Shown one piece after another: positions 21,901 to 63,104 of a stretch of DNA of 64,000 nucleotides; within the stretch, counting starts at the first letter, position 1, and every line of letters starts with the position of its first letter. Position numbers and translations under genes: made by a program. The DNA lies in assembly GCF_902713615.1 (NCBI RefSeq), contig NC_052147.1:16941865-17005864 (forward strand), given 5' to 3'. The notes beneath the pieces were generated by a model, which saw nothing but the letters and a program-made list of their open reading frames with translations, made no database searches and was not told the origin of the DNA. This DNA comes from Scyliorhinus canicula. Lineage: Eukaryota.

Positions 21901-22086
21901 GAGGAAGGAGCCATTGCTGATGGCGGGCTCCGCGACAGGGGACTGTGTGCATCCCGGTCGGGTGAGGCTGGGCGGGGCGGAGTTTGGTTCCCTGGAGGTT
22001 GGGCGGGGAGTGAATCATGTGAGGGCCCAACCTCTATAAAGGTCGCTTGTGGCTGAGTGGCCTTTAGTTCAGGCGGTGTTAGCGGG

Positions 22087-34000: not shown

Positions 34001-36267
34001 TTCATTGTCTCTGAAGAACTCCATTACCTCCTCCGGTATTCCAAAATAATACTTGTGCCGTTGTGAGTCACGCAGAGGTGGGACGTGCACAGCATCCTGA
34101 ACTTTACCCCCTTCTTAGAGGCTAGCCTTGTCTCTGTTGAATCCAGCTCTCCTCTTGGCCAGTTCAGCGCCCAGGTCCTGGTATACCCGGAGCTCGCTAC
34201 CCTCCCAGGTACATCTCCTCGTCTGCCTGGCCCACCGCAAGACCTTCTTTGCCCAAGAACTGATGTAGCCTCCCTGCCATTGCCCTTGGCGGCTCCCTCA
34301 TCAGTGTCCATGCGCCTGATCAACCTCCAGGAGCTGGTTGAAGGCTCCTTGCCCTATTAGCTGTGCCAGCATTTTGGTTACATAAGAGCCAGTGTCCACT
34401 CCCACAATGCCCTCTGGCAGCACCACAATTCTCAGATTCTGCATCTGGGAGCGCTTCTCCAGATCCTCCACTTTCTCCTTGAGCCGCTTCTGGGTCTCCC
34501 TCAACATCCCAATTTCGGCCACCAATGAGGTGAGCTGCTCTTTGTGCTCCCCCCATCGCTGCCTCCACCTTCTGGATCGCCTTGTTCTGGTCTCCAGCCT
34601 CAACCCCACATGGTCGATCCCTGCTTTGAGCAGGTCCACCACCTTCGCCATGTCCTCCTGAGCCCCCCTCCTCTGACTGAACTTTTTGTTCAGAAAGTCC
34701 ACTAACTGCTCCATCAACCACTGAGCTGATGGGGCTGGTTCCTTGCTCTCCGCCATCTTCCCCTGTGTCGCACAGCGACTTTCTTGCTCTTGCAGCTCTT
34801 TTCTTCTAAACCCACTTCTGGTCCACAAATCCATCCACTGACCTCACCAGTGGAGTATAATTTTCCTCCACTACCTCTACACCTTTTTCCTATAAATTAT
34901 TCACCCAGTAACTGGGGAAAAGGACTGAAAAAAACGCCTCGAGCGGGAACTGCCAAATGTGTGATCGCTCAGTTCATGGCCATCACCGGAAGTCCTAGGG
35001 CATGGAATTTGTGACAGGAAACCAAAGTAGTAACTTTAAACCTCCCAGTGTTCAGCTGGGAGGTATTTATGCTCATTTAGCAAGGAAACAGTTCAGAGCC
35101 AGTGGACAGGGGTGTTAATATCAAAGATGGGCATGGATTGGGAGCCACCAACGTAACTGGATTTTGGAGAAGAAAGGAGGTTGAAGATGAAGCTGTTGTT
35201 TGTAGGATGGAGGAATCGAGCTAGAATTGGGATGCAGCAAGTTTGAGAAGCAGGGTACTGAGCGTTTTGAAGAGGGGAGAGAATCTTTCACGATATCGGC
35301 TATCGTGGGAGCAAGGAAGAAGTTGAAATTGGGTTAAGGAAGCTGCCTGGGTCTTATGGGGAAGATGAACTAGGATGTATAAGAGGAGGGAGGAGAGAAA
35401 CTTGAGCAGTGTCAGTTCAGATCCAGGGCCTGTAGGAAGAAGGATGTGGCAGAGGCATCTGATCAAATAATCTTACTCTTGATCACACAATCTTTGTGTG
35501 TCATTGGGCACCATGGAGGAGACTGGGAGAGTGGCCAGATGATTTGCAACACAAGTTATTGAAGGTTACTTTTACATCACAAGATGATTCTGGAGTAGTA
35601 AGCTGTTTTTGATGGTGCTTTCTGTGATCCAGCCAGATCTGGCAGTCAATGGCCAAGTCACTTCTCTGGCATATTCATGCCTTGGACTTGGGATGGGTGA
35701 GGGGAATGGCCAGGGTCAGAGAGTGTATATAGGCTTTAATGGGGGACTAAGGCAGCAAGATTGCAGGTGAAGGCGCAGAGGGGCAGGTTGATGGCTGCAG
35801 AAATGGCAAGAGTGAAGAGATAGCCAAAGACAGGACAGTTTGGATTTTAAAAATGCAGTTGTAAATGGTGAGTTTTCTTGGGCGGACAAAGAAGGAAATT
35901 TGTAGCGGGAAGTCGAATGTGGGTGAAGAACAATGCAGGCGATGGTTTGTGTTTGACGTGAATCGTGAGGCCACACGACGGGGAGGAACAGTTTTAAATG
36001 CACCTGGCCAATTTGTACATGGGTGGGGCATAATTTCTGATTGCATCTGAATTGAGGCTATTGGCACATTCAGCCTGGTACTTGAGAATAAATGAATGAA
36101 TTGGTTTTTAGTGGATGCGGCAAGATTTTGCACTTGTTCTCTTAATCCTCTCCACACCTTCTTTCCCCACCTTTTACCAGGTTGAATTGGTGGTTAAATG
36201 GGAGCTGATGGATGACACTAAAAACATCATCTTCTGCTGGAAGATCCCAGTCAAGATCTCCAGCTAA
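22087..36267 (+). CDS. NPC2: NPC2 paralog, copy B (149 aa); exons 22087-22171, 27799-27903, 30283-30455, 36181-36267
   Basis: [30 protein letters not shown]...[12 protein letters not shown]...[11 protein letters not shown]...[13 protein letters not shown]...IFCW; same intron phases as copy A, open frame, AATAAA 36486-36491. Confidence 0.93.
24862..25217. mobile_element. hAT-type MITE nested in a SINE
   Basis: 16-bp TIRs CAGGGGTGGGCAAACT / AGTTTGCCCACCCCTG, 8-bp TSD CCGTAACC (24854-24861, 25218-25225). Confidence 0.9.
25869..27183 (-). mobile_element. 5'-truncated Penelope-like element (RT C-terminus plus GIY-YIG endonuclease) with inverted terminal repeats
   Basis: [27 protein letters not shown]....YIGET, GLNRD motifs with one internal stop; ~110-bp inverted repeats carrying hammerhead-like cores. 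Confidence 0.9.
28568..28893 (-). mobile_element. HE1/V-SINE copy (others at ~22568-22840, 29823-30115, 31487-31760, 36992-37290, 51380-51606, 60207-60435)
   Basis: Shared head, V-core and tail. Confidence 0.8.
32235..34995 (-). mobile_element. Internally deleted L1/Tx1-like LINE (5' UTR, ORF1, ORF2 3' part)
   Basis: ORF1 motif [19 protein letters not shown]; ORF2 [33 protein letters not shown]. Confidence 0.8.
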
Positions 36268-38639
36268 ACCAGACTGTGGAATATTAACTGCAATAGTAGC
36301 TTGGATAATGCATTCAGCTGCATGATGGGAAATTAAAAGCGACTTTTTTGGAGTGGAGATTTTTTTCATATTTTTTTACAAAATCTTGTACTTGTAACTT
36401 TGGAGCACAATTTTGAGATGAACATTGTGACCTGGCTTTGGCTTTAATACTAAGATTGTTCTTTGTACATTAACCTGACTGGCTCAATAAAGAAATTAAC
36501 TCCAAGTTGAATGTTGTTTGGTTTTAAATCCAGGGAATATTTCCACAGTAGTTAAACTCTGATGGCATTTTGAGATTGGGACAGAGGGAATGGACTATTT
36601 AAATGTCTCCCCATTCTGAACCTCTTTCCAGTTACTGAGTTGCGATTTAAATTCTACCGTGTGCATCACACCCTCCTCCATGTGCCCCCTGAAATGTACA
36701 TCACTTTTTAGTCCCTGGTGCCACTTTTCCCAAGTGAAAATAACCCTCCCACTTGCTTTTCTTCCTTTTCAACCTTTTTATTGAACTGTATTCAATCACA
36801 ATCTGCAACCTCGTAGCCAAGCATATTCCTCGCTCCATTGTTAGCAAGCCAGGGGACCAACCCCACCAGCCAATCTCTTTTTAAAACAAAAAATAAGACT
36901 TACCAAGCTGACAACACATGACTACTTGCATAGCAAACAACAACATGATCAAGTTAAATCTCTATGCTCGCGGCGATGGAGCACAGGGAGTCATAGAATC
37001 CCTATAGTACAGAAAGAGGCCATTTGACCCATCAAGCCTGCACCAACCCTTTGAACAACCAGCCTACCTAGGCCCAATCCACAGCCCTGTAACCTTAGCT
37101 TGAGGGGCAATTTAGCATGTCCAATTCGTCTTACCGACACATCTTTTGGACTAAGAGGAAACTGGAGCCTCCGGAGGAAACCCCCACAGACACGAGGTGA
37201 AAGTGCAAACTCCACACAGGCACTCAAGGTGGGGATTGAACCCTGGACCCTGCTGCTGTGAGGCAGTAGTGCTAACCATTGTGCTGCTGTGGACCATCTC
37301 CCTCTGGGGCCATGCCACCACCTTCAGGTCTGTGCCACATAAGCCAGTGACTGCCACATTGGCTAGCGATGGGGCAGTGCTGCAGATGCTCTCAAACATG
37401 ACTGACTGGATCACACTCTGGAGTGCCGCTGTAATGTCAGGATGGCCCTGACTCGTGGCCGCCTGTGATAAGGCAGCCTGGGCCTTGGCCACTGCCTGCA
37501 CAGAGTACCCTAAGCATTGGACATCCTGACCCATGTCCGACACCTTCGTCCCTGAAGCCTCCATCGTGGGTGCCACCTGTGGTGCTGGCCTGTGTGGCAT
37601 GCATGGTTGCCACCACCAACACCTGCAGATGCTTTCATGACTCCAACTGCCCCTACAGGTGCTGACACCCACTCATGTAGTCTCGGCTCTCGGACTGTGT
37701 CTCCACTATGAATGGGATTCCCCCCCCTTTCTAGACGCCAAATACCCATCTGGACAGCAACTGGTACCTGGGCTTTGGTTGCCCTCCCAACAGTTCACCA
37801 CCTCGGGGGTTTGAACCTCCACCTGCTATAACACAGCACCTGTGGTGTGCACCCTATAGTGCCCCAGGAGCCTCTTCACTAATGTGCCCAACTGAGGTGA
37901 GTGTCTCTGGGATGATGAATGGTGTCGGAAACAGCTGTAATGGGAAATCCGTGTCGTCCCTGGACTGGTGCTCTTTGCTGCCACCTTGTTGGCTGGGATG
38001 TGTATGGGGAGTGGAGAGCTTGTATGTGGCTGCAGCTTGTCAGCCTCTCGAGTGTCAATTCCTACCCCAGTGAATCGGACACCATTTTGCATTGGAATCG
38101 GTCATGTTCCATGTGGTGCCGGTGCTAGCCCATTGACGTTCGGTGGATTGGTCTGGGAATGGTGCCAATTTTGCTGTCGTAGAACACCACGATTCAGTCC
38201 CAGCGTCAACACTGGCGTGTAGAATTCTGCCGGGGATGTTTGTTATGAAGAGATTGAGTACTGTCGAGTTTAGAAGACTGAAGAGATTTAATAAGTTGAT
38301 AAAAAGGTATTGACAAGTAAACATGGAGGGGATGCTTCTTCTTGCGGGCCAGTCTAGAATGAGAGATAAAGGGGTAGCAGATTTAAAACCTAGATGAGAA
38401 GAAATTGCTTCAGAGTCATGAATCGGGGAAATTCACTATCCCAGAATACGGTGGAAGCTGGGCCATTGAGTAAATTTGAGGAGATGGACAGAATTTTAAT
38501 TAGTAATGGGTTGAAGGGTTATGGAGACCGGGCAGCAAAGTGGAGTTGAGGTGGAGAGGAGATCAGCCATGATCGTATTGAATGGTGGAGCGGGCTCGAA
38601 GACTGAATTACCCACTCCTGCTCCTAGTTCTGATGTTCC

Positions 38640-38978
38640 CATACACAGCTCCCTCCACTGAAGATGACTGTTGATTTGCCTGAATCATGACTTTTCTTTT
38701 GACTGGCCTCTGTCCTGACAAATTTGGAAACAGCAGGCTTAGTCTGGCCCTAAGATGCCAGCCCATCAACAAGTCTGCTGGCAGTGCTCCCGGTATCGGA
38801 TACAGAGTGGTTCTATAGGCCGGAAGGAATCGTGAGATTCTGGTCTCCAGGGCCGTCCCTGACTGCTCCTGTAGGCCCACCTGGACTATCAATGGTTTGA
38901 TACCATTCAAGGAGGGGAAATTTTGAAATTCGGCACTTCTGAATGGAAGGCTGTTCCATTATCCAAAGCTTTGACTTG
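38640..38978 (-). mobile_element. Old Gypsy integrase remnant (C-terminal half); N-terminal half at ~48930-49225
   Basis: DNGTAF, RFLPAYRTT, PADLLMGWHLRARLSLLFP; other half HPFISKTKMLTRSYVWWPGIDANI..CCEQC. Confidence 0.7.
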
Positions 38979-38984
38979 GGCTGG

Positions 38985-39938
38985 TGTTGCACGTTTTACT
39001 ATGGGCGTAAAACGCGTTTATTGGAGTGTATTAACACGCCTCCGAGTTCGACGTGTGCTTAACACTGCTAGGCTCTGTTCTATGTAATTATTTAAGCTCT
39101 GGAGTCGCCAGCTGCCGTATAGGCAACGTCACAAGTATTCCAAGGTCAAATTCAAAGTAATAAAGACGATACACCGATTAGTCAAGTTCAAACGATCAAT
39201 ATTTATTATACAGTTAATAATAAATACTCATGCACACACACACTAAGAGACTAAGCTACAACTAAACATAAGCAAACAGAATACTTATCTAACAGGAACA
39301 GGCAAGGTCAGAGAACGAGGCCTTCGTCCTGGTTTTGTCTGCAGCCTTCAGCAAGCGTTCTGGCACTTGGGAGTCTAGCGGGCTTGGATCGCGTAGCGAG
39401 CGTTGAACTTACGGTTTCGGCGGCTGGTGCTCAACGGCTGGAGTCAGGATACCAGGTGTCAGTCGGGGCCGGAGCACAGGTTTAACAGACCGGACAACAC
39501 GAGGTCCCTATCTTTTATAGGGGTTCCGTTGTCCTTCCCTCTTCTCGGGCGGGCTCTACCTATTGGATCAATTTCTTATCGATACTGGATTAATTCCCCA
39601 ATGCGAGGGGGTCTCCGTGATGGAGGGGGCGTTTCTTATGTCCTTTTGTTCGGAGGTTTCTGGTGCCTCGATGTCTGGGTCTTGATTGGAATGTGTCCAT
39701 TCAGAACCAAATGTATCTATTGTGTGGGTGTTCAAGTCTGATGGCCTCATTAGCATGCAAAGCGTTTTGCCATTTGCACCTAGCTAAGGTCTCTTCACCT
39801 GAGCCCAAACTGGTTTCTGCTGCTGCAGAATGCAAACTGCTCTTTGCAGACTGCTGTTCTGGCTGAACTGTCTGTTTCTCAGCAGCCTTCCATTTTAGTT
39901 TGGCTCAGTGTCCATTTTGCGTGGCCAGCATGGCTACA
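38985..39938 (-). repeat. 3' LTR (954 bp)
   Basis: Direct repeat of 47851-48804 at offset 8866; minus-strand AATAAA at 39202-39207. Confidence 0.95.
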
Positions 39939-39948
39939 TTCCCTCCTT
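39939..39948 (-). other. Polypurine tract
   Basis: AAGGAGGGAA directly before the TG of the 3' LTR. Confidence 0.8.
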
Positions 39949-40266
39949 GTGATCCTCACAATCATACTATTGTGAAGGATCACCTATGTACTTTGCCTCC
40001 TTGTGTTCTGACCTCTTGCCAGTTCCTGTTCTACTCTGTTCTAAACTATGGGAAGAAGAGAAAAAATTTTTTAACTAACATTTCTACTTGGCCCTATGTC
40101 AAAGGGACATGCATTACTACAATTGGGAACCTCTACCTATCACTATTAACCTTAACCTTAACTTAAACATGTAATCACTCTAAACCTTAACCATTCACAC
40201 CACAACATCACACTTCCCAACTCGGCAGTCGAGTATGGAACAATATAATACATGGCTGAATTTTAT

Positions 40267-40620
40267 TTACAGAGTGTTGTAATCAGTGAGGGGTTGAGGG
40301 GTTTGGTGGAATCCGAAGATGGGGGATTGCACTCTATAGATGGGTGAGGTGCTGGAACGAGAGGCTCTCCTCTTCCATTTCCTCAACCTGAGGGTCTGCA
40401 CTAGGATGATGAGGATCGCAATCACCAACAGTGATTCGATTATGTAGGACATGGAGTACCACGTCATGAATTTAGTACACCAGGTCTGAACCTCGCTGAT
40501 CAGAGCTGAGCACTGGGGGTTTGTTGTACTAACATTTACGGTGGGGGTTGTGGGGGAAACGTGTCTTGTTTCCACACATATACATATGACATTAAATAGT
40601 AATAAGTGGGCTTCCATCAT
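40267..40620 (-). CDS. 117-aa small single-pass membrane protein in the env position
   Basis: AAAATGATGG strong start context; hydrophobic N-terminus, S/T/P-rich stalk with NVS sequon, C-X10-C, TM YIIESLLVIAILIILVQTL, polybasic RLRKWKRR, C-terminal YNTL. Confidence 0.7.
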   Translation of the reverse strand: MMEAHLLLFNVICICVETRHVSPTTPTVNVSTTNPQCSALISEVQTWCTKFMTWYSMSYIIESLLVIAILIILVQTLRLRKWKRRASRSSTSPIYRVQSPIFGFHQTPQPLTDYNTL

Positions 40621-41555
40621 TTTGCTGTTCTTCTTCTTTCTCTTCCTTCTTCCTCCGGTATTGACAATCCTGGCTTCGACCTCTGTCTCGTCCTTTGAAA
40701 CCTTTGGGATCAAGCACAGTATCTGTCAATACACAGTTTAAGACCTTTACTTGTTAGTGCATCTGTCTTTCAAAACCCAATTGACCCTTTAAAATGACTG
40801 GCTAAGTCACACCCTGTGACTCCCCTCATTTTTTTTTCAAAAAGCGAATTTAAAGACCAGCATACACCTAACAATCCTTCCTTCTGCGAGCCGTCTCGCA
40901 GGCTTTGCTGATTTACCATCCGAATGTTTCCGGATGTAAATAGCATGTGGGATGGTGGCCGAAGGGCTACCTAACGTAAAATGAAAACAAAATTTGGAAA
41001 GAAACATCCGAATGAGTTGCGTATGGGCCGCTACGGGTATGAGTTGGATGGGATCCCCGGGTAGGGCGTGCTGTGCCATACCCGAGCTTGGCTGACCAAG
41101 GGTTGGTTCTCAGACAGGGCGGGTCCTCAGTGCCGTTTGTCCACTGCCTGAGTAACCTGGAAAAACGGGTACGAATGTGTTTACCATGACTTGCAGCCTC
41201 TATTTCGCCGAATAGAGGGGCACCTAAAAAAACCAAGGGAGCCAAGATGCTCCAACTGAGGACATCACTGAAGTTCTCAGAGATATCTGCAGATAAACTA
41301 TTTGGCGTGTGGCCTTACAACTTTGGAAAAGATCTCCAATCAAACCGAAGTTCTCAAAAGTTTCGGCAGACAAGCTAACGTGTATGTGAGGTGGTCACAA
41401 TCTTTTCAGCTGAAAAGAAGATGTCCATCCTCCAGCTGAAACATTTACATTCCTGAAACAAACAAACATAAAACGAAGACAAACATACGTGCAGGTTCCA
41501 TCAGAAAGGACATCGTTTCCCTCAAACGATTCCTATCTTACATCATCTGGACACC

Positions 41556-44500
41556 TCACTTTGATTCTGCCTCTGTGAACAGGGTCACAAAGGGGTTGCC
41601 GTGTCGGGAGTCAGACATTGCGTCGTCCTGCTCTCCCGGATCCCACACCCTTGTGTGGATCAGGCATGCTATTTTGGAGTTGTGTGACCGGGGGTCACTC
41701 TCGTCATTGCGGACAAGTCTGTAGGAATTGTCCCTGTGCCATTGTGTGGCGTCGAGTGTGTTGTCGGGGTAGTCGGGGTCGGGTGGTGGTTCGGGGTTTT
41801 TGAGGTAAGTGACTTCCATGGGGTCACTGGAGTCGGGGTCGTAGTTGGTGCAGTGTGGGCTGTATGGCTGTGTGGTGTCGCTGTCTTCAGAGTCAGTGTC
41901 TGTCCTACTGTCTCTGCTGTGGCAGCTTGTGGGCGTGTCGGGGCGTGGTCTGTAGTGGTCTGTGGGCGGAGTCATGGGCGAGTCCGTGGATGAACTGGTC
42001 TGTGAGGGGGATGGTGGAAAAGTGTCTCTGGTGGGCGGGGTGAAGTGTTCTGCCGCGTCTAGCAGGACATGGTGAGCATGGTTGGCCTGTGTTCCATAAG
42101 CCTTTAACTGGTTTATATGGAACCACGCGGTCTTCCCATTAGGATATTTGATCCTGTAAACGGAGGGGCTAATTTTGTCCGAAATTGAGTAGGGACCGGA
42201 ATATTTTGGAGCCAAAAAACTGCTGGGGTTATAAACAGATAACATTACCTGTTGCCCAACCTGGAATTCTGTGGTGTGTACGGTCTTATTGAAACAGGCA
42301 GTCCGTTGCTGTCGGCGTTTCCCTAGCTGGACTGCGGCTGCGAGCTGTGCAGACCTCACAGTCTCAACTAGATCTCTAACTGCCTTTTCATGTGTGAGGG
42401 CCGTCACTTCGGGGCTTGTCATGTCCAGTCCTAAAAGGAATTCTGTACCTTTCATAGGGCGTCCGGTCATGAGTGTGTGTGGTGTGTATCCTGTCGATGT
42501 GGAGACAGTGTTCCTTATGAACATAAGTGCAAAGGGGAGCACTGAATCCCATGTGGAATTGTTCTCTTGAACCATTTTCCTAAGGGTAGTTTTTAGGGTC
42601 CGATTCATGCGCTCCACAATCCCGCTGGACTGTGGATGATACGCAATGTGGAAGTTCTGTTTGATTCCGAATATTGTCAGGACGTTCCTCATGACCCGTC
42701 CTGTAAAGTGAGATCCCTGGTCCGAATCGATACTTCGGGGTAAACCCCATCTCGTGAAGATGTGGTGGGTCAGGATCTTTGCAGCTGTCTTAGCTGTGTT
42801 TGTTCGCGAGGGAAATGCCTCTACCCACTTGGTAAAGGTATCTATCACCACCAGAACGTATTTATAGCCATTCCGACAAGGGGGCAATGGACCTATAAAG
42901 TCGATCTGGAGGTTTGTCCAAGGGCCGTTAACTGGGCGAGTATGCCGAAGTTGTGCTTTCTTAGAATACCGCTCCGGGTTATTCTGAGCACAAATCAGGC
43001 AATTCTCTATGTAGTGCGTAACATCATTCCTGAGATCAGGCCACCAACAGAGTTGCCTGAGGTGCCTCGTTGTTGCATCAATTCCCTGATGGCCGTGTCC
43101 GTCATGGAACAAGGCAATCATCTGATTCCTGTCCTGCTGTGGGACCACATAAAGTCGGTCCTTAATGATCACACCCTCATGTGTGGTCAGTGCGTGTTTG
43201 AAGTGCTCGTAAGCAGGCACAAAGTTTCCCTTGAAAACCTCCCTGAGGTCTCCGTCCTGTTTTTGTGCTGCCACGAGGTCTTTAATATCAGTCTGTGAGA
43301 CTTGGACTGCGCTCACAGGGGCGCTAGCTGGTGCGGTAGCTGGGGGGGTCCATAAGTGTCCTCTCCTGGAACCTGCCTTAGCCAACGCGTCGGCTTTTAC
43401 ATTCCCAGGGGGTGATGACCTATGGTGACTTCTTACTTTTATTATGCCGAAGGTCCTGTCCTTCGCTTTCGCTAAAATATGCTGGAGTAGAGGGGCTGAT
43501 GGAAGGGGTTTCCCGTCTGCGGAGACAAAACCTCGTGTCCTCCACAGGGGCAGAAAATCGGTTAAACTGTTACAGACATATAAGCTGTCTGAATATATGT
43601 CTGCTGGGCTGGGGAAAGAATCGGGGTGGTCCACTATGTACGCTATGGCTGCTAGCTCTGCTGCCTGCGCGCCTAAGTGACCTGGTAACTTAAGAGCTAT
43701 CTCTTCGAGAGCGCGCCCCTGCGCGTCCTCTACATAGATGCCGCATCCTGTGATACGCTCACCATTTAAAACTGTGGAGGAACCGTCTACATAAATCCTC
43801 AAGGGTCCACACGTGTCTGTGGGCTGGGGGCTTTGTTTCGGGTTCCCTATCTTCCTGGGGGGTGTTTTGGCTAAAAAGGGTCCTGTGTTATGCAGGGGAG
43901 CTACAATTTCACAGTCATGGGGCTGTCCGGGGTATTGGAGGTTGTCTGCTAAGTATGTGTGGGTGCGTGTCCGTTTTACTGTAATGTCCCGTCCTTGTAA
44001 AAGTAGGGTCCACCTAGCTGCCCTAATCTGGCTAACTGAACCGTCCTTCAGTCGACCGTCTAGGAGTAGCTGTGTGGGTGTATGTTCGGTTAGAATGGTG
44101 ATGGGGTTTAGTCCGGTTATGTATGAAAAGTACTGTACTGCCCAGAAGACAGCAAGGAGGTGCCTCTCACAGGCTGAAAATCCTTGTTCTACCGGGTCTA
44201 ACAGTCGGGAGGCATAAGCCACTGGTCTTAGCTGCTCGTGCCGTTCCTGAAGCAACACGGCCGAGAGGGTTAGATCTGTGCTAGCTACCTCGATTGCGTA
44301 CGGTGAAAGTTGGTCGGGGACTAGCAGCGCGGGTGCTGCACTAAGGGCTCGTTTCAACTCTTCCACAGCGCCTGTATGCTGCGGAAGCCATTCCCAGGGG
44401 GCTCCTTTCTTAAGGAGGTCTGAAAGTGGGGCGGCTTTTGTCGCGAATCCGTCGATGTGGTTCCGACAATAGCCAACCAGTCCTAAAAACGACCGGAGGG

Positions 44501-45782
44501 CTGATACATTCTGGGGAAGGGGCAATTTGACAATCGAATCAATTCTTTTGAATTCGATCTCGCGTTTGCCGTGCGTGATGACTGATCCCAAATACATCAC
44601 TTTACTTTCCAATATTTGGGCCTTTTTCGGGTTAACTTTACAGCCAATTTCAGTTAAGAGTTCCAGGAGTTCGGCCAGAAGCGAAATGTGCTCTGCCTTT
44701 GTGTCTGTCTGCAGTAGTAGGTCGTCTACATACTGTACCAGACATTCGGGTCGGGAAAATTTTTCTAATCCACTTGCCAGCTGTCGGTGGAAAATGGAGG
44801 GGGAATTGTGGAATCCTTGTGGGAGGCATGTCCACGTGTACTGCTGTGTTTTAAAAGTGAATGCGAATTTGTATTGGCACGCTTTTGCCAATGGTATTGA
44901 CCAGAATCCATTACTGATGTCCAATACCGTGAAGTACTTGGCGTTGAGACCCTGCTTGAGCATGGTCTCGGGACTAGTAGCTACCGTTGGGGCTACTGCG
45001 GGGGTTACTTTGTTGAGTTCCCGATAATCGATGGTCAGACGCCATGATCCATCGGGCTTCCTCACTGGCCAAATAGGGGCATTGTTGGTGGAGGCTACCG
45101 TTCTCAGTACACCTTGGTCCAACAAGCTGCCTATAACTTTTTCTATTTCCACCTCTGCCTCGAGGGGAAATCTATACTGCTTTTGCGGTCGGGGGTCCTG
45201 TCCGGTAACATGAACTTGTCCAGTCATTCTGCCACAGTCATGACGGTGACTTGCAAATGCTGTCCTGTGTTTGTTTAGTAGGGCCTTAATTTGTCGGTCG
45301 GTGTGGAGTGTAGTCAGGTCGAATGAGTACTCTCCCACTGCGCTAATCCGATTAGCGTAGTCTCCTACTGTGAGGGTGGCTGGGGCTCTGTCTGATCTCG
45401 CCATTCGCCAGACACACTGGTTCACTGGGTCGAACGACAAGCTGTGAGCGTTCATGAAATCTATCCCCAGGATGTGCTCTGCTGTCCGGGGAAGATTTAC
45501 TAAAACTACGGGGTGCCTTGTGCTAATGTTCCCTAGCTGGATCGCTACGGGTGCTGTGATATGTCCCTGCTGCGAGTGTCCGGTGAACCCGCTAAGTGTG
45601 ATGGTGGAGGTGGTCGGCCACGTGTCTGCGTGTGCCGTGGTTGTGGAGTTAATGGTGGTGCGGGATCCTCCTGTGTCCCACAGTAACTCTATGGGCTTCC
45701 CTTTGACTTTTGCCGTGACTACGGGCCTCCCTGATGAGTCCCATAGTGTGTCACAGACCCAAGTGGGGGAGCCCGAACACCG
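41556..45782 (-). CDS. pol: Pro-Pol (protease, RT, tether RNase H, RNase H, integrase), in frame with gag
   Basis: LLWDTGGS at ~45669-45677; LDISNGFWS, LPQGFHNSP, YVDD; RPVAYASR tether; YVDGS..AQAAEL..YSDS..GNVKADALA; HHCC and DDE integrase with GPY module. Frame open from 45782, 109 codons upstream of the listed ATG. Confidence 0.93.
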   Translation of the reverse strand, partial: RCSGSPTWVCDTLWDSSGRPVVTAKVKGKPIELLWDTGGSRTTINSTTTAHADTWPTTSTITLSGFTGHSQQGHITAPVAIQLGNISTRHPVVLVNLPRTAEHILGIDFMNAHSLSFDPVNQCVWRMARSDRAPATLTVGDYANRISAVGEYSFDLTTLHTDRQIKALLNKHRTAFASHRHDCGRMTGQVHVTGQDPRPQKQYRFPLEAEVEIEKVIGSLLDQGVLRTVASTNNAPIWPVRKPDGSWRLTIDYRELNKVTPAVAPTVATSPETMLKQGLNAKYFTVLDISNGFWSIPLAKACQYKFAFTFKTQQYTWTCLPQGFHNSPSIFHRQLASGLEKFSRPECLVQYVDDLLLQTDTKAEHISLLAELLELLTEIGCKVNPKKAQILESKVMYLGSVITHGKREIEFKRIDSIVKLPLPQNVSALRSFLGLVGYCRNHIDGFATKAAPLSDLLKKGAPWEWLPQHTGAVEELKRALSAAPALLVPDQLSPYAIEVASTDLTLSAVLLQERHEQLRPVAYASRLLDPVEQGFSACERHLLAVFWAVQYFSYITGLNPITILTEHTPTQLLLDGRLKDGSVSQIRAARWTLLLQGRDITVKRTRTHTYLADNLQYPGQPHDCEIVAPLHNTGPFLAKTPPRKIGNPKQSPQPTDTCGPLRIYVDGSSTVLNGERITGCGIYVEDAQGRALEEIALKLPGHLGAQAAELAAIAYIVDHPDSFPSPADIYSDSLYVCNSLTDFLPLWRTRGFVSADGKPLPSAPLLQHILAKAKDRTFGIIKVRSHHRSSPPGNVKADALAKAGSRRGHLWTPPATAPASAPVSAVQVSQTDIKDLVAAQKQDGDLREVFKGNFVPAYEHFKHALTTHEGVIIKDRLYVVPQQDRNQMIALFHDGHGHQGIDATTRHLRQLCWWPDLRNDVTHYIENCLICAQNNPERYSKKAQLRHTRPVNGPWTNLQIDFIGPLPPCRNGYKYVLVVIDTFTKWVEAFPSRTNTAKTAAKILTHHIFTRWGLPRSIDSDQGSHFTGRVMRNVLTIFGIKQNFHIAYHPQSSGIVERMNRTLKTTLRKMVQENNSTWDSVLPFALMFIRNTVSTSTGYTPHTLMTGRPMKGTEFLLGLDMTSPEVTALTHEKAVRDLVETVRSAQLAAAVQLGKRRQQRTACFNKTVHTTEFQVGQQVMLSVYNPSSFLAPKYSGPYSISDKISPSVYRIKYPNGKTAWFHINQLKAYGTQANHAHHVLLDAAEHFTPPTRDTFPPSPSQTSSSTDSPMTPPTDHYRPRPDTPTSCHSRDSRTDTDSEDSDTTQPYSPHCTNYDPDSSDPMEVTYLKNPEPPPDPDYPDNTLDATQWHRDNSYRLVRNDESDPRSHNSKIACLIHTRVWDPGEQDDAMSDSRHGNPFVTLFTEAESK

Positions 45783-47531
45783 TCAGTTCGTCTCGTCCAC
45801 ATTGGTGGGTCCTGACTGTACTGCTACATTGTGGATTGGTTTTGCTTTGTTGCGGTTCAGAGTGCCTGTCTGCTGGCCTCTCTGAGATCGCTGGGGTGCA
45901 TTACACTCTTTTGCCCAATGCCCTAACTGTCCACAGTTATAGCATTCCTGTCCTTTCTGTTGAGGGCTGCTCTTGCCTTCATTTACCCATGCGGGCTTCT
46001 GGTGCTCTCTGACTGCTTGGATATCTGCAGCAGCCTGAGCCTCTTCTGGGGATCTAACCTTTCCTTTTGCCTGAAGCGATTGCTCCCAAGCGCGGGACAA
46101 TCTTTTCAGGACCCATTTTTCGTTATGGGCCTCTTCTGAGGGGTCGTAACTATTGCAAGCGCTCTGTCCTGCTTCTGTTGCGTGTGAGATAATTGTGCGC
46201 GTCCATTTAACCATGTTTTCGCGGGTTAAATGCGCTCTATCTAGCTGTCCGAAAACTGCGCTGAAATGAATCCACAGCCTTCCTGCGAATGCTGTGGGGT
46301 GTTCAGATCTCTTCTGCCTGCACTTATTCAAGCCTTCTACGGGGTCACCTCTATTGTACCCGATGGCATCTAAAATAGCAGTGTGCATCTCCTCTAGGCT
46401 GCCTCCTGCCACGTTTTGTGGGTCGGGGAGGGCTGCCACTACACTCTGGTCTAAGCTCAACACGGTGAGCTTAACCTGCTCTCTCTCATCCAGGCCGTAC
46501 ATGGTAGCCTGCTGTTTTACTTTCGCGAAGAACTGGTGGGGGTCTGCGGTGGGGAGGAACGGAGTGATCTTTTCACAAGCGTCCCTTAGCTGGGTTACTG
46601 TTAAAGGGGTGGTGTAAGTTATGTCTGGGGCGCCTTCTGATTCGGCTTTCCTCTGTGTGGTTACGGGATTCATGGGTGCGGTTATGATCTGAGCTGTGGG
46701 GGGTTGGGGTGCCTGTCGTTTCTGCTGAGCTGCGGGCGCACATGTTCCCTGAACATAACGCTGCGCTGTCTCGCTTAATTCCTGCCAATCTGGGGCGTTT
46801 TCCCCATCTAACTGAGCTCCAAAGGTGCTTTGGAAGCCATTCTGCACCGAAAGCAGAGATTGCAGTTCCGCAATCTGTTTTCTGCATTTCGCGTGGTCAA
46901 CTGTGCTTTGTCTTTGTTCGGTTGTTGCAGCATGGAGTGCTCTCAAAGCTGCTTTGAGATCGGAACATTGCCTCTGCAATGCCTCCACCTGCTTCTCCGA
47001 TTCCTGTCTTATCAGAACGGCACGTTGCACGTCCTGATAGGCTTTCTCATACTGGGTCTGGGAACTGTTCAGATGAGCTAGACAAGACTGGTGAGCCCTC
47101 TTGGCATCATCCACCTCTCTACCCTTCTCTGCCAACTTCCCTTTAAGATCCAGGTTTTCTTTCTCGATGTCCCTGACATCGACCTTACTCATTCGGTTCT
47201 TTTCCTCTAAATCTGTCCGGAGCGTCCTGATGACCTCCTCTGCGCCTCGCAACTGTGCCAAGCAGGACACAATCGCCATCGGCTTGCGTGCTTTACCTAA
47301 ACTCTTTTTGTGTATCTGAGAGAGGTTCTCCCACCAAGTATGACCTATACTTCCGGGACCTGTCTCCTCATTTGCACAAAACTCTTTCCAAAGGGGCCAT
47401 CCCTTTCCCTGCAGATATTTGCGGAGTTCCAGCTCCCACGTGGGACACTGGCCTACCCTGCTACTGCTGCTGGTCGCTGCGACCACAAACTTTGCTGGAT
47501 CCATCAGACGTTCCATTGCCTGCATGGCCAT
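45783..47531 (-). CDS. gag: Gag (582 aa) with long coiled-coil segment and one CCHC zinc knuckle
   Basis: First ORF after PBS; CYNCGQLGHWAKEC; heptad-rich region ~aa 90-230. Confidence 0.9.
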   Translation of the reverse strand: MAMQAMERLMDPAKFVVAATSSSSRVGQCPTWELELRKYLQGKGWPLWKEFCANEETGPGSIGHTWWENLSQIHKKSLGKARKPMAIVSCLAQLRGAEEVIRTLRTDLEEKNRMSKVDVRDIEKENLDLKGKLAEKGREVDDAKRAHQSCLAHLNSSQTQYEKAYQDVQRAVLIRQESEKQVEALQRQCSDLKAALRALHAATTEQRQSTVDHAKCRKQIAELQSLLSVQNGFQSTFGAQLDGENAPDWQELSETAQRYVQGTCAPAAQQKRQAPQPPTAQIITAPMNPVTTQRKAESEGAPDITYTTPLTVTQLRDACEKITPFLPTADPHQFFAKVKQQATMYGLDEREQVKLTVLSLDQSVVAALPDPQNVAGGSLEEMHTAILDAIGYNRGDPVEGLNKCRQKRSEHPTAFAGRLWIHFSAVFGQLDRAHLTRENMVKWTRTIISHATEAGQSACNSYDPSEEAHNEKWVLKRLSRAWEQSLQAKGKVRSPEEAQAAADIQAVREHQKPAWVNEGKSSPQQKGQECYNCGQLGHWAKECNAPQRSQRGQQTGTLNRNKAKPIHNVAVQSGPTNVDETN

Positions 47532-47827
47532 TTCCTCTGACTCTCTTTTTATAATTTGGAACAGGGGGTTGCTGGGGTGGTGTTTCGTAAAAAGGGTACG
47601 GCTTACGCTATTTTCCGATTACAAAACTACCGAAAGTTTGTCGCAACAAAAAGCTTTCAGTTTTACCTTACAGCCCTGTTAGTACGCATGCACTAAAACA
47701 CACTTCCGAATTTCGCTTATTATTTTGAACACCTTGAATACTTGTGATCTCTTTCTTTCTCTGCAATTTGGAGTTCTAATTCAAATTTCAGGGTCCTGGA
47801 CACTGTGGTGTTTCCACTTGCAACAGG

Positions 47828-47845
47828 ATCCCACCAGAGTCGCCA
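47828..47845 (-). other. Primer-binding site, tRNA-Arg(UCU)
   Basis: TGGCGACTCTGGTGGGAT, complementary to ...AUCCCACCAGAGUCGCCA, the 3' end of vertebrate tRNA-Arg(UCU) as recalled. Confidence 0.8.
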
Positions 47846-47850
47846 CTAAA

Positions 47851-48804
47851 TGTTGCACGTTTTACTATGGGCGTAAAACGCGTTTATTGGAGTGTATTAA
47901 CACGCCTCCGAGTTCGACGTGTGCTTAACACTGCTAGGCTCTGTTCTATGTAATTATTTAAGCTCTGGAGTCGCCAGCTGCCGTATAGGCAACGTCACAA
48001 GTATTCCAAGGTCAAATTCAAAGTAATAAAGACGATACACCGATTAGTCAAGTTCAAACGATCAATATTTATTATACAGTTAATAATAAATACTCATGCA
48101 CACACACACTAAGAGACTAAGCTACAACTAAACATAAGCAAACAGAATACTTATCTAACAGGAACAGGCAAGGTCAGAGAACGAGGCCTTCGTCCTGGTT
48201 TTGTCTGCAGCCTTCAGCAAGCGTTCTGGCACTTGGGAGTCTAGCGGGCTTGGATCGCGTAGCGAGCGTTGAACTTACGGTTTCGGCGGCTGGTGCTCAA
48301 CGGCTGGAGTCAGGATACCAGGTGTCAGTCGGGGCCGGAGCACAGGTTTAACAGACCGGACAACACGAGGTCCCTATCTTTTATAGGGGTTCCGTTGTCC
48401 TTCCCTCTTCTCGGGCGGGCTCTACCTATTGGATCAATTTCTTATCGATACTGGATTAATTCCCCAATGCGAGGGGGTCTCCGTGATGGAGGGGGCGTTT
48501 CTTATGTCCTTTTGTTCGGAGGTTTCTGGTGCCTCGATGTCTGGGTCTTGATTGGAATGTGTCCATTCAGAACCAAATGTATCTATTGTGTGGGTGTTCA
48601 AGTCTGATGGCCTCATTAGCATGCAAAGCGTTTTGCCATTTGCACCTAGCTAAGGTCTCTTCACCTGAGCCCAAACTGGTTTCTGCTGCTGCAGAATGCA
48701 AACTGCTCTTTGCAGACTGCTGTTCTGGCTGAACTGTCTGTTTCTCAGCAGCCTTCCATTTTAGTTTGGCTCAGTGTCCATTTTGCGTGGCCAGCATGGC
48801 TACA
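47851..48804 (-). repeat. 5' LTR (954 bp) with promoter
   Basis: Minus-strand CCAAT ~48427-48431, GC box, TATAAAA 48385-48379, donor GTAAGT 48278-48273, AATAAA 48073-48068. Confidence 0.95.
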
Positions 48805-49956
48805 CTGGGATTCTCTGCTTTCCGGCGGGCGGGCCGTACCGGTGCCAGGGAGTCCGGCTGCCGGCGGGGCGAGGTTCACCCTGCCCCCTCCGGCCCTGTG
48901 GGGGGGTCGGAGAATTCCGTTCAGTGGGTTGAAAAACACTGACGCAATTTCTCAATTGTGGCGTGTGACGCTGTCAACTTCGCTTTGGGCATCAACAAAG
49001 AGAAAAAACATCGCACAAGGATAGCCCCACATAATCCAACACAAACCCATACTCATGGCTGGCCCAGCCATGCCCAAGGGTGCAATGGGGCTGCAGCATT
49101 TGGCACTGTTCGCAACATGTCGCCAGACTCTTAATGTTGGCATCAATGCCAGGCCACCATACATAACTTCTGGTGAGCATCTTCGTCTTGGATATAAACG
49201 GATGGGCACTGTGCACTAACTCCATTCCTGTACTCCGTTTGGCCGGCAGCCCGGGGGGGGGGGTTTCCCGTTGCCCCACAATGGGAAACCCCACTGAACA
49301 GCCAGCGTAATGGAGCATCCAGCCAGCGGGGTGAAATGGAAATGGGACGGGGGGGGGGCAGAGAATTCAGCCCCCAGTATCTTTGCTCTGGCACATCAGG
49401 GACTGGATTCTCCAATAATGGGGCTATGTCCCTATGCTGGTGTTTCACTCTGGACTTTCCTTAAGAAAGTCCTGAGTGATTCTCCCATCTGCAGGGGGCT
49501 GGCAGGGCCCCGGAGTGCTTCTAGCAGCTCTGGCTGCGGATACGGGGCCCCTCACCTCCAATCGGGAGTCCGCACATGCACATGGCAGCGGGTTGCAGCG
49601 GCCGCCCCGTGGGACATGGCGGACATTAGAGCGGCATCTAAAATGTACCCCCCCCCCACCGAGGTTGTGTGTGCCCACGTGTTCGTGACGCACAATCGTT
49701 CCCCTGGCCGTCCATGAGGCCGCCCCCCCTCCCCCCACCCGGTGATCGATCCCCTCGCCCCCCCCCCCACAGTTTTGCACAGAGAATCGCGGCGGGGGGG
49801 GGGGGGGGGAGGCTCTGACAATGGCTCCCTATCCGCGCCGCATAGTTCGCACGCGAGAAACCCCTGGGCATGCGGCCACTGCGTCGAACGTGATTTAGAC
49901 ACAGAGGCTCATAGAATCCAGCCCCATGCCTCCAGCTAACAGCCCTGGTAAGATTG

Positions 49957-50625
49957 CTCAAATTCCACAGGGACAATATTCCGGAGCGGGGAAGGAGGAG
50001 AGGTTTAGAATTCCACAGGAACAATATTCCGGGGTGGCGATGGAGGAGAGGTTTAGAATTCCACAGGAACAATATTCCGGGACGGGGATGGAGGAGAGGG
50101 AGGATATTCTGGGACGGGGAAGGAGGAGAGGTTTAGAATTCCACAGGGACAATATTCCGGGACGGGGAAGGAGGAGAGGGAGTATGTTCTGGGACGGGGA
50201 AGGAGGAGAGGTTTAGAATTCCACAGGGGCAATATTCCGGGACGGGGAAGGAGGAGAGGTTTAGAATTCCACGGGGACAATATTCCGGGATGGGGATGGA
50301 GGAGAGGTTTAGAATTCCACAGGGATTATATTCCGGGACGGGAAAGGAGGAGAGGTTTAGAATTCCACAGGGAGGATATTCCAGGACGGGGATGGAGGAG
50401 AGGTTTAGAATTCCACAGGGATTATATTCTGGGGCGGGGATGGAGGAGAGGTTTAGAATTCCACAGGGAGGATATTCCGGGGCGGGGAAGGAGGAGAGGT
50501 TTAGAATTCCACAGGGAGGATATTCCGGGGCGGGGAAGGAGGAGAGGTTTAGAATTCCACAGGGAGGATATTGCGGGACGGGGATGGAGGAGAGGTTTAG
50601 AATTCCACAGGGACGATATTCCTGG
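49957..50625. repeat. 48-bp minisatellite, about 14 units
   Basis: Unit GGAGGAGAGGTTTAGAATTCCACAGGGACAATATTCCGGGACGGGGAA; 16-aa periodicity in the ORF track. Confidence 0.9.
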
Positions 50626-53600
50626 ACTGCGGCAGATTAATTTTAAATTGATTTTACGGGATGTCGGGGTCGCTGGTTAGGCCAGCATTTATTGCCCATC
50701 CCTACTTGTCCTTCACAAGGTGGTGGTGAGCTACCTTCTTGAAGCACATCTCCTCGAGGGGAGGGGCACGATTGAAAAACTCGGGCCTAAGACAATGAGA
50801 CCATTCAGCAACAGCGCCCACTAGCTGCTCAAAGGGGGCTGTAAAAAAGTCTTTTCTGACTGATAAATTTTCCCTTTAGAATCTGCAGTCCATTGTTGCG
50901 CCAAACAAATTGCAGCTTCGTGGTCAGAGCTTCCCACACATCAGGTGAGGCAGCAGCAACTCAGCAGTGCCACCATTGCAGTCAAACACAATTTCCCATT
51001 GCAACCACTCCACGCTGCCGGCAAACCCTCGCCCCTCCGTCCACACTTTCTTCCCCCACCACTTTCCCATCTCAGCTCCTTTTCCCATCTGTTACACGCT
51101 GGAAGAGTGGAGTTTGGGGTGTTGTGATAATGTCACTGGTCTAGCAATCCGGAAACCCTCGTTCTTTCTCTGGGGCCAACAGAGTCAAGCCTCAGCACGG
51201 CAACTGGTAACATTTAAATTCAATTAATCAATCTGGAATTGAAAGCCAACTTTGGTTTTAGTGACCATGAAACGATGGTCGGAAAAACCCATCTTGTTCA
51301 CTAATGTCCTTTAGGGGTGAAAATCTGCCATCGCCTGATCGACATATAGTTCCGGATCCACAACAATGTGGTTGACTCTTTTTTTTAAATAAATTTAGAT
51401 TACCCAATTATTTTTTTCCAATTAAGGGGCAATTTAGCGTGGCCAATCCACCTACTCTGCACATTTTTGGGTTGTGGGGGCGAAACCCACGCAGACACGG
51501 GGAGAATGTGCAAACACCACACGGACAGTGACCCAGAGCCGGGATCGAACCTGGGACCTCAGTGCCGTGAGGCGGTTGTGCTAACCACTAGGCCACCGTG
51601 CTGCCCTGTGGTTGACTCTTAATAGGAGGTCCAACAACACCATCCGAACAGGGCAGCCTGCTTGACCGGCACCCCATCCTCTACCTTAAACATTCACTCT
51701 CTCCACTGGTGCACAGTGCAGCAGCAAGCTACTCTATTGTATCAAACCACTGCAGCATCTAAAAGGAATGAAGTCAGACGCACCATCCAGCATCAGACGA
51801 GGAACTGAACACAACAGCTAACCCTGCCCCGTTGACACTCCTTACAAACATCTGAGGGTTTGCGTCAAAATTGGGAGGGCTGTCTCACAGTCTAGACTGC
51901 CAGTCCCACATACGGAATCAGCTTACAATGTCCTAAACACCACCATTGGCATCCCTGGGTATGTCATGACCAACCAGCAGGACGGCACTATAAAGTGGCA
52001 AGGGTGTTGCCCTGGGAGTCCTCAACATTGACCCATGACCCCCATGAAGTCTCATGGCATCAGGTTAAACATGGGCAAGGAAAGCTGCTGATTGCCAACT
52101 GCCACCACCATCACCTCCCCTTGCTCCCGAGGGCGGCAAGTCCCGATTAGGGACTTTAATTCAAGAGTGGCTTGTTAGTACCACTAGTGACCAAGCTAGC
52201 CGAGTCCCAAATGACACACTGGCCAGACAACGGCCAGATCTAATAAAGTCCGGCCATCTCCCCTTGATTTCAGGACCATAGCCATTGCTGAATTCCCCAT
52301 TATCAACATCTTGGGGTTACCATTGACCAGGAACAGCTATAATATTGTGGTATGAGAGCAGGTCCACACTCAAGAAGTTTGACACCATCCATACAAGGCA
52401 GTCTGCTTGATTGGCACCCCATCCACCACCTTAAACATTCACACCCGCCACCACCGACGCACAGTGGCTGCCATGTGTTCCATCCACAAGATGCACTGTA
52501 GCAACTCACCAAAGTTCCTTTAACAGCACCTTCCAACCCCACAACATTTACCACCGGGAAGGGCAAGGACAGCAGATCCATGGGAATGCCACTGTCTGCA
52601 AGTTGCCCTCCAAGACGCACATTAACCTGACTTGGAAATATATCGCCGCTGTTCCTTCACTGTCACTGGGTCAAAATCCTGAAACTCTCTCCCCAACAGC
52701 ATTGTGGGGGTACCACGTAGGCTGCAGCGGGTCAAGAAGGCCTTGCCAACGACACCCACATCCCGTGAACAGATTAGTTTAAAAAAAAGACTCAAGGGAA
52801 ACATTCACTTGGAGTTGAAGAACTGATATCCATGGAGAAAAGTTGGAAGCTGAATGCATCAGAAATTGCCTCATCTCGCCAGATGCTCTGGATGTTACAC
52901 ACAAGTCAGGCATTGAAGGGAAAGAGTCACCAGTCGATGAGACCAGTACTCTAGCTGCTCCACCATCTGTTGATCAACAGCAAATGCAGATCTTACTGGA
53001 AATCCAACAGGTGAGAGCTGCTCAGGTATTGTGACTCCTTCAAGGCCCCAAGTATATGATCTGGTTGGGCCTCAAAGGTAGCTCTGTGCTCCAATTCTGG
53101 GCACAACACTTTAATAAGGATGTCAAGCCCTCATTGAGTCTCTGCTGGTAGCAGTGACTCAACCCATTCTGAAAGGCGCTTTGGAAAATGCAAGTCATAA
53201 ATCAGGAGAAATGTTATAATATTCAGGTGCCACCTGTACCTACATTGAGATCACGGAGAGGTTACATGGAAACACGTCAAACCCCCTCCGCCCCGTGAAC
53301 CCCCCACTTACATTTGTCAAACACACAGAAATTCTGCTGAGAGATGACTTTATTAATCTGCTGTTTACAGTATTCCGTAAAGCAAGGATCATATTGTCAA
53401 TAATCTGTTGCCTGCATTCCTTCATCTGTGGAACTCTCTTCTCCAGAAGATGGTGAGTGCAGGTCAATGAATATTTTGAAGGTAGAGGCAGATGAATTCT
53501 TGACTCCAAAGGGATGGGCGGTTTGTGGGGTCGAAGCCACACCCAGATCAGGCATGGTCTTATTGAATGACTGAGCTCAAATTCTGAGAGGCTGAATTTC

Positions 53601-59344: not shown

Positions 59345-59955
59345 ACATAAAGAGTAGATCCCCCTCTACACTGTCCCATCAAACCCAGTGCAGGATGGCA
59401 CAGAGTTAAACACAAAGTAAATTTCCTTCTACATTAATAAACACTCCCATGGCAGATACAACACGGGGTTAGACACAGGGTGGAGCTCCCTCTACACTGT
59501 CCCATTAAACACTTCCAGGACAGGTACAGCACAGGGTTAGATACAGAGTACAATTCATGTACACTGTTCCATCAAACACTTCCAGGACAGGTACAGTACA
59601 GGGTTAGATATAGAGTACAATTCCTGTACACTGTTCCATCAAACACTTCCAGGACAGGTACAGCACAGGGTTAGATGCAGAGTAAAACTCCTGTACACTG
59701 TCCTATCAAACATTCCCAGGGCAGGTACAGCACAGGGTTAGATACAGATTAGTACTGTTGTACACTGTCCTATCAGACACTCCCAGGACAGGTAGAGCAC
59801 AGGGTTAGATACAGAGTAAAACTCGTATACACTGTCCTATCAAACCTTCCAGGGCAGGTACAGCACAGGGTTAGATACAGAGTAAAACTCCTGAACACTG
59901 TCCTATCAAACATTCCCAGGGCAGGTACAGCACAGGGTTTGATGCAGAGTAAAGG
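59345..59955. repeat. ~67-bp tandem repeat, about 9 units
   Basis: Unit GGGTTAGATACAGAGTAAAACTCCTGTACACTGTCCTATCAAACATTCCCAGGGCAGGTACAGCACA. Confidence 0.9.
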
Positions 59956-62730: not shown

Positions 62731-63076
62731 TCATAGAATTTACAGTGCAGAAGGAGGCCAATTGGCCCATCGAGTCTGCACCTGCTCTTGGAAAGAGCAC
62801 TCTACCCAAGTTAACACCTCCACCCTATCCCCATAACTCAGTAACCCCACCCAGCACTAAGGGCAATTTTGGACACTAAGGGCAATTTATCATGCCCATT
62901 TCACCTAACCTGCACATCTTTGGACTGTGGGAGGAAACCGGAGCACACGGAGGAAACCCACACAGACACGGGGAGGAAGTGCAGACTCTGCACAGACAGT
63001 GACCCAAGCCGGAATCGAACCTGGGACCCTGGAGCTGTGAAGCCATTGTGCTATCCGCAATGCTACCGTGCTGCCC
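62731..63076 (-). mobile_element. HE1/V-SINE copy
   Basis: Full head/core/tail; flanked by the duplication AGATTATCATAG (62725-62736, 63094-63105). Confidence 0.85.
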
Positions 63077-63104
63077 TACTACAAATCCCTAAAAGATTAT
63101 CATA

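Follow-up and report, generated by a model that had tools for sequence, protein, structure and literature searches.

The closest described relatives of the element considered here belong to the clade of snakehead retrovirus (SnRV), which has one exogenous member by the account in PMC12193657 and has been described across vertebrates (PMC6001957, PMC4977317). SnRV is reported to possess a coiled-coil, non-myristylated Gag with one zinc finger and a pol expressed by stop suppression (PMC2717909), and to carry env together with several small accessory open reading frames (ORFs) and complex splicing (PMC12193657). Among cartilaginous fishes, a published clade member of the elephant shark, lineage I of the endogenous retrovirus (ERV) group CmiERV, clusters with SnRV and dates back tens of millions of years (PMC4422223), while the avian Ovex1 was placed nearest SnRV and class III (PMC2717909). 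Here we describe a provirus of 9,820 bp in a 64,000-nucleotide stretch of the Scyliorhinus canicula genome (assembly GCF_902713615.1, contig NC_052147.1, positions 16,941,865 to 17,005,864 of the forward strand; hereafter the window, with positions counted from its first letter). The provirus spans 38985-48804 on the minus strand and is read from 48804 to 38985. Judged from its sequence, it classifies as a true retrovirus that belongs to the SnRV-like clade already known (clade Huo of Xu et al. 2018), not as a basal or new lineage. We consider it probable that the element is an ERV of this clade that lost env and copies inside cells, and that a 117-amino-acid (aa) protein encoded in the env position is an accessory factor or an Env stub. 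What is new is the env loss together with a small, conserved membrane protein where env would stand; the clade itself is known from the elephant shark.

Relationships of Gag and Pol

Placement of the element draws on gag and pro-pol, which form a single frame of 5,976 nt whose sole internal stop is the gag TGA, and which comprise the following parts.

45783..47531, minus strand: gag, 582 aa, from ATG 47531 to TGA 45785-45783
45690..45785, minus strand: gag-pol readthrough signal, UGA-CGG-UGU plus a predicted extended stem-loop from about +12
41556..45782, minus strand: pro-pol, 1408 aa, in the gag frame
45447..45731, minus strand: aspartic protease with DTG (Pfam and motif)
44388..45191, minus strand: reverse transcriptase (RT) with YVDD and SnRV-like motifs (Pfam and motif)
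43983..44387, minus strand: tether, an apparently degenerate Ty3-type RNase H (Pfam, RT-type RNase H-like, aa 465-596)
43368..43799, minus strand: second RNase H, catalytically complete (Pfam aa 662-805, E 1e-15)
42096..43145, minus strand: integrase (IN) with HHCC, D-X59-D-X35-E, GPY and SH3 (Pfam zinc finger, core and SH3)
41559..42080, minus strand: Pol tail, about 175 aa, rich in Ser/Thr/Pro/Asp, unaligned in the seven relatives of alignment A1

In RT identity, Pol is best matched among named proteins by those of frog, coelacanth, turtle and ostrich, at 46-58%; eleven class-I-like rows lie at 33-39%, one foamy-type row at 38% and 15 Gypsy rows at 26-34%. The only chondrichthyan-named matches (Mustelus asterias, Scyliorhinus canicula) are closer than the other named vertebrate matches, and one Mustelus asterias gene model holds Pol fragments 59-66% identical to the element. 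Two public models (P0017 and P0271) look chimeric, with ERV-family fragments fused to a transporter in Mustelus or to an unrelated N-terminus in Scyliorhinus. A first tree of 39 rows, computed by a quick method, had long branches meeting; 13 of the 39 were dropped (two long branches, one compositionally odd row, and partial or near-duplicate rows), and the final trees hold 26 named rows. In these trees 17 retroviral rows separate from 8-9 Gypsy rows with support of 99-100 in RT, RT+tether, IN and combined data alike, so that a Ty3/Gypsy assignment is out, as is the outcome that the original prediction for this stretch had named as fatal to its reading, namely an RT lying within ordinary Gypsy. 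The element and eight relatives, the nearest being the frog, coelacanth and turtle 'NYNRIN-like' Pols and Ovex1, group together (SH-aLRT 96 for RT+tether, 98 for RT+tether+IN, 91.5/86 for RT and 72 for IN), and both RT+tether and the combined data reject a tree in which the element is forced to be sister to all remaining retroviral rows (p 0.005 in both). The ostrich row bears the motifs given for Ovex1 in PMC2717909. When the element was compared by eye with the RT alignment published in the supplement of PMC7947760, hand counts over the first 138 RT columns gave 80 identities with SnRV, about 59 with simian foamy virus (SFV), about 58 with a lamprey lokiretrovirus and about 55 with MuERV-L; the overall count for SnRV is about 126 of 264 RT columns.

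Of the features of Retroviridae, the RT grouping, a tether with a second RNase H, and the protease-RT-RNase H-IN order are present, and env is missing. At the three acidic sites of Ty3, the tether reads A500, H541 and E566 by eye, suggesting a degenerate RNase H in which acidic residues present in Ty3 have been lost; the second RNase H retains D666, E709, D732 and D798; catalytic motifs are likewise kept in the protease, RT and IN. This arrangement of a degenerate followed by a complete RNase H had been read correctly in the original prediction, and the RT motifs it quoted are found. To our knowledge the dual RNase H is the usual state of all retroviruses, and it therefore carries no surprise once the RT has been placed. 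The Pol tail has no family match (its best Atlas match, a chromodomain at 0.81, is at chance level and was not used). An alternate frame over the tail (41971-41669) holds a 100-aa open stretch rich in Thr/Pro/His and lacking an ATG.

Gag begins without a myristoylation Gly and contains a single long helix of 126 residues (aa 82-207) in an AlphaFold model, with block pLDDT of 65-94, mostly near 90; the crude heptad filter returned no window and missed this coiled coil. C-terminal to the helix, the model has a capsid-like helical domain at about aa 312-490. Its best fold match is the capsid of murine leukaemia virus (MLV; E 0.004), the top ranks are all retroviral capsids, and nothing in the fold search reached E<=0.001. 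One CCHC knuckle lies at aa 530-543, so that both the long coiled coil and the knuckle claimed at the outset are borne out, and the nearest Gag relative is 76% identical. At the gag-pol junction, the stem-loop after the gag stop folds with z -2.0, and 5 of 200 shuffles fold equally well. The UGA-CGG context is tabulated for Venezuelan equine encephalitis virus (VEEV) and Colorado tick fever virus (PMC13517186, Table 1), and the same source gives UAG-GGC for SnRV and UGA-CGA for ZFERV. The shark element has an alphavirus/coltivirus-type readthrough context that is absent from the retroviral contexts covered here from PMC13517186.

Comparison with the described systems refines the picture. With SnRV, the element shares its RT motifs, a coiled-coil and non-myristylated Gag with one knuckle, a pol in the gag frame that is reached by stop suppression, a tether followed by RNase H, and small 3' ORFs; the snakehead lead of the original prediction therefore fits on RT motifs, Gag, readthrough and hand counts. 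Unlike SnRV, it is endogenous, measures 9.8 kb, lacks env, and uses UGA-CGG instead of UAG-GGC, and its 3' ORF predicts a small membrane protein instead of the cysteine-rich and basic 205-aa 3'ORF. CmiERV lineage I resembles it in host group, in RT and tether motifs (the tether reads EVAG) and in its one knuckle, all by eye, yet is old, with LTRs 3.3% apart, a gamma-type env (by eye) and a different primer-binding site (Han 2015, PMC4422223), so that an Arg primer is not clade-defining. The Gag of Ovex1 shares the coiled coil and readthrough, whereas Ovex1 as a whole is a fixed, catalytically dead gene without LTRs or knuckle and with an 873-aa ORF3 (PMC2717909). ERV-L and XtERV-S (PMC8278194) lie on the same class III side of the tree and have TGT...ACA ends of the long terminal repeats (LTRs); XtERV-S shares the in-frame TGA between gag and pol, and ERV-L the missing env. 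Lokiretroviruses (loki) and Odin elements share the dual RNase H, with a coiled-coil Gag in the loki-related Bik-1 and no env in Odin, and differ in RT motifs and tree position.

Three further assignments were discarded. A foamy-like one is out given the CCHC knuckle, pol in the gag frame and no A9 protease match in Pfam (definitions in PMC8278194 and PMC5210030). A lokiretrovirus is out on an RT reading LPQGF versus PFG(Y), on lower identity, and on finding no match resembling paramyxovirus F. Finally, ERV-L/XtERV-S is out on YVDD instead of YIDD, no dUTPase, the presence of a knuckle, and a 4-bp instead of a 5-bp target duplication.

The env slot and its small membrane protein

Between pol and the polypurine tract lies an interval of 1.6 kb that bears no env trace.

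40726..41555, minus strand: post-pol region of 830 nt, no env trace, with acceptor-like sites at 41453, 41410, 41224, 41157 and 40971 and short ATG ORFs of 80 aa (41079-40837) and 58 aa (40946-40770)
40267..40620, minus strand: predicted type I membrane protein ORF, 117 aa, in the env position

A Pfam search of 39953-41555 in the three sense frames, with X at stops, returned no family at all, the search against PDB gave no match below E 0.2, and no CX6CC, CWxC or immunosuppressive-domain (ISD) motif was found. The env-less description thus stands in that env is absent, and fails in treating the 3' region as empty, for it overlooked the 117-aa ORF. Since the clade holds enveloped members (SnRV and CmiERV lineage I), the env loss is secondary, and the suggestion that its absence is ancestral largely falls. 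ERVs often lose env, which leaves their descent unchanged.

The 117-aa ORF is laid out with a hydrophobic N-terminus (6-16), an N-glycan sequon at 29, an aromatic juxtamembrane patch, a transmembrane segment (TM) at about 56-77, seven K/R in the 15 residues past it, and a C-terminal YxxL. When the region was resampled 2000 times (first-order), an ATG ORF of this length arose in 57 cases, one with a TM in two, and one with both hydrophobic segments in none, under criteria fixed after the ORF had been seen. One of 19 candidates is a homolog, Scyliorhinus canicula LOC119963282, identical at 69 of 112 positions (62%; E 1e-37). Identity is distributed unevenly: 3/18 in the signal-like segment, where hydrophobicity is equal, and 11/25 in the distal ectodomain, where the sequon is kept, rising to 12/14 in the juxtamembrane part, 14/19 in the TM and 29/36 in the tail; the YxxL is absent from the homolog, and the alignment also takes in a basic stretch upstream of the ATG. 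This pattern is constraint-like, as might be expected of a membrane protein, and a conserved RNA element could contribute to its 3' part. An AlphaFold model of the ORF, built with two sequences, had a pTM of 0.32 and showed two helices only. Pfam matches to TMEM156 (E 0.04) and K1 (E 0.09) fell below the cut-off, and Atlas matches (TMIE and Flu M2, weak; best 0.88, recognition 2142) were at chance level and were not used.

With all cis signals and the catalytic motifs of Gag and Pol intact and env undetectable, the following course can be proposed. The LTR would drive a full-length genomic RNA; Gag would be made from ATG 47531 and Gag-Pol through occasional readthrough of UGA-CGG, aided by the downstream stem-loop. 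Particles would assemble within the cell, a host tRNA would prime their reverse transcription, and integration would leave a 4-bp duplication; the element would thereby copy itself in the germ line in the fashion of an LTR retrotransposon. A spliced RNA, joining a donor in the LTR (candidate at 48278) or leader (candidate at 47666) to one of the candidate acceptors past pol, would encode the 117-aa membrane glycoprotein; a branch-point-like heptamer and an AG at 40723 lie upstream of the ORF, with no ATG between. The protein is most probably either an accessory protein that the element has kept or an Env reduced to a stub of signal peptide, short ectodomain, anchor and tail; it would work at the cell surface or take part in trafficking, and would not be a fusogen.

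Several points weigh against this account of an intracellular SnRV-like element. The final trees contain no SnRV, foamy, loki, Odin or ERV-L sequences, so that the RT, RNase H and IN phylogeny called for at the outset was realised for RT, tether and IN with Gypsy references, and the link to SnRV rests on the hand counts and the Ovex1-like row. A basal position is unrejected by RT alone (p 0.073) and by IN alone (p 0.275), and a grouping with class I is rejected by the combined data only (p 0.020; single parts 0.058-0.20). As to the mechanism, the nearest acceptor-like site, at 40723, failed the pyrimidine filter. Finally, the 64-kb window holds no second copy and no solo LTR, and so lends no support to env-less amplification.

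The element might instead be a deletion derivative of an env-bearing, SnRV-like complex retrovirus, in which a deletion removed env from between pol and an accessory gene at the 3' side; this copy would then have integrated shortly after that event or with the help of a relative that had an envelope. Consistent with such an origin are the env genes of both SnRV (PMC12193657) and CmiERV lineage I (PMC4422223), the accessory ORFs and complex splicing of the former, the several acceptor-like sites and short ORFs in the 830 nt past pol, and a length of 9.8 kb versus 11.2 kb in SnRV. However, no env fragment or motif is found on either side of the putative deletion, and the small ORF occupies the env slot with a signal-like start of its own. 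On balance we regard this origin as somewhat unlikely.

We hold it distinctly unlikely that the 117-aa protein replaces Env as a factor akin to sORF2 or to reovirus proteins of the fusion-associated small transmembrane (FAST) class, moving capsids from cell to cell, for example from soma to oocyte. Size, N-out topology, an ectodomain of about 40 residues following a signal peptide, the polybasic patch and the env slot fit the criteria set out in bioRxiv 2025.03.14.642691; in the values used here, 117 aa lies within 60-210 aa, the ectodomain is short, and seven K/R fall within 15 residues where at least three are expected. Cell-to-cell transfer by sORF2 has been proposed for Drosophila MDG1 elements, which are also env-less (bioRxiv 2025.03.14.642691; PMC12945298), and the former source places 7 of 22 lepidopteran cases downstream of pol and reports similar proteins in fish nackednaviruses. 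The conserved parts of the ORF are also the juxtamembrane ectodomain, TM and tail. Yet sORF2 and FAST proteins belong to Metaviridae or to naked viruses, and most carry a myristoyl group and cross the membrane with one hydrophobic span, whereas the shark ORF has neither an MGxxxS/T motif nor a single hydrophobic span: its second hydrophobic segment resembles a cleavable signal peptide, and it carries an N-glycan sequon. It also has no conserved cystine loop (one shared Cys only) and no Tyr past the TM. The amphipathic moment is high in the basic tail only, with no ectodomain window above 0.55 on a scale that differs from Heliquest; no sequence similarity to sORF2 or FAST was detected, and Atlas gave no FAST match. 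The features listed are, moreover, widespread among small membrane proteins. The broader proposition, that a shark family of the SnRV clade swapped Env for a conserved 117-aa capsid-transfer protein and is still inserting in the germ line, is likewise distinctly unlikely; if true, it would be the first envelope-independent route of the FAST/sORF2 kind in vertebrate Retroviridae.

What specialists would hardly anticipate is the conserved small membrane protein encoded where env would stand, which may show how such elements persist or spread without an envelope. An intact copy with identical LTRs offers a clean reference for shark members of the SnRV clade, and a switch from virus to intracellular retrotransposon can be tested on it. 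Neither this element nor any vertebrate ERV with a small membrane ORF in place of env was found described in the literature covered, which excluded subscription papers, Repbase/Dfam and the supplements of the bioRxiv preprint and PMC10435555. Motifs from the primer-binding site, RT and small ORF had no match in the supplements of PMC10699275 and PMC4422223, where line breaks or absent sequences could mask them. Of the features defining an invading ERV (ERVi, Wang and Han 2023), the element has identical LTRs and gag-pol and lacks env. As described in PMC10435555, a screen that covered 2004 vertebrates, including 13 cartilaginous fishes, has no shark order among its invading-ERV hosts; because it demanded env, it would skip this element.

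Provirus ends, age and descent

The provirus is bounded by the following features.

48805..48808, no strand: target-site duplication, right copy, 4 bp
47851..48804, minus strand: 5' LTR, 954 bp, TG...CA ends, with (in LTR positions) CCAAT at 250 and 373, TATAA at 420, a donor-like site at 527 and AATAAA at 732 and 917
47828..47845, minus strand: primer-binding site, 18 nt, starting TGG, 5 nt past the 5' LTR
39939..39948, minus strand: polypurine tract, 10 purines, directly beside the 3' LTR
38985..39938, minus strand: 3' LTR, the same as the 5' LTR, no mismatch in 954
38981..38984, no strand: target-site duplication, left copy, 4 bp

The two LTRs match at 954 of 954 positions, the match stopping exactly at both borders; their outer ends read TGT...ACA, and CTGG (plus strand) flanks the provirus on both sides. 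The primer is one that we take to be tRNA-Arg, presumably as in SnRV. Exact alignment thus upholds the LTR identity first judged by eye, and the perfect 4-bp duplication and the freedom of gag and pol from disabling lesions hold as well. A CpG observed/expected ratio of 0.66 in the provirus versus 0.43 in the flanks, above all ten flank bins (0.31-0.56), agrees with a young insertion, as do the intact gag-pol frames.

LTR identity bounds the age only to under 3-7 million years (Myr) at published shark rates, so that the copy need not be active at present. The description of the element as very recent is therefore right as to its youth and too strong as to its upper bound, and that of an intact, potentially active element holds for the cis signals and the Gag and Pol catalytic motifs without extending to present-day activity. 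An apparent youth produced by assembly or gene conversion in an older provirus, which would be compatible with the other readings, seems very unlikely. Identical repeats 8.9 kb apart may be homogenised in assembly, as a matter of general knowledge, and shark substitution rates are slow, but the 5,976 nt of gag-pol are open without stop or frameshift and the CpG ratio exceeds every flank bin.

The basal lineage put forward in the original prediction, a primitively env-less and Odin- or loki-like retrovirus, is highly improbable: dual RNase H without env is indeed the Odin layout (PMC9040795) and single-gene trees tolerate the position, but RT+tether and the combined data reject it, the loki RT motif differs and the loki match is far below that of SnRV, loki Env is paramyxovirus-like and three chondrichthyan genomes are unmarked in the loki survey (PMC7947760, on our own reading of its asterisks), and Odin is reported from sea anemones only (PMC9040795), cnidarian hosts unlike the vertebrate flanks here. 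The element has no bearing on the origin of retroviruses.

Several minor features accompany these ends. Within each LTR (48155-48278, minus strand, in the 5' copy), a short intron within R could run from the donor-like site at LTR 527 to an acceptor, preceded by a branch point, at LTR 650, and either of the two AATAAA (LTR 732 and 917) could set the R/U5 border. The U3 of each LTR holds a 62-aa ATG ORF (39568-39756 and 48434-48622, minus strand) with no Pfam match. Just upstream of the polypurine tract, 39950-39985 (minus strand) forms by eye a near-perfect inverted repeat of about 14 bp with one bulge, possibly a 3' cis element. An Rfam scan of 38500-49300 gave one chance match (E 0.55).

The surrounding window

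The insertion point lies where a GC-rich and possibly palindromic repeat begins, of which the window has no second copy. At 190 bp from the provirus, 48992-49366 (minus strand) holds an old fragment of a Gypsy-type integrase zinc finger (Pfam E 7e-11). A single-exon serine-protease domain at 54686-55600 (minus strand), nearest to complement C1r, MASP-2 and haptoglobin, retains its His and Asp motifs and reads GDTGG at the catalytic Ser motif (Ser to Thr); the provirus lies about 5.9 kb downstream of it on the same strand. Tandem arrays occupy 49873-50723 (48-bp unit), 59422-59978 (67), 21695-21918 (40) and 56234-56360 (35). At least ten copies of one short interspersed repeat, which we take to be a shark SINE, are scattered across the window (e.g. 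4403-4675 and 62805-63077), LINE-like fragments lie near 26386-27117 and 32753-34843, and ARAGORN identifies a tRNA-Tyr(GTA) gene at 5137-5224 (plus strand).

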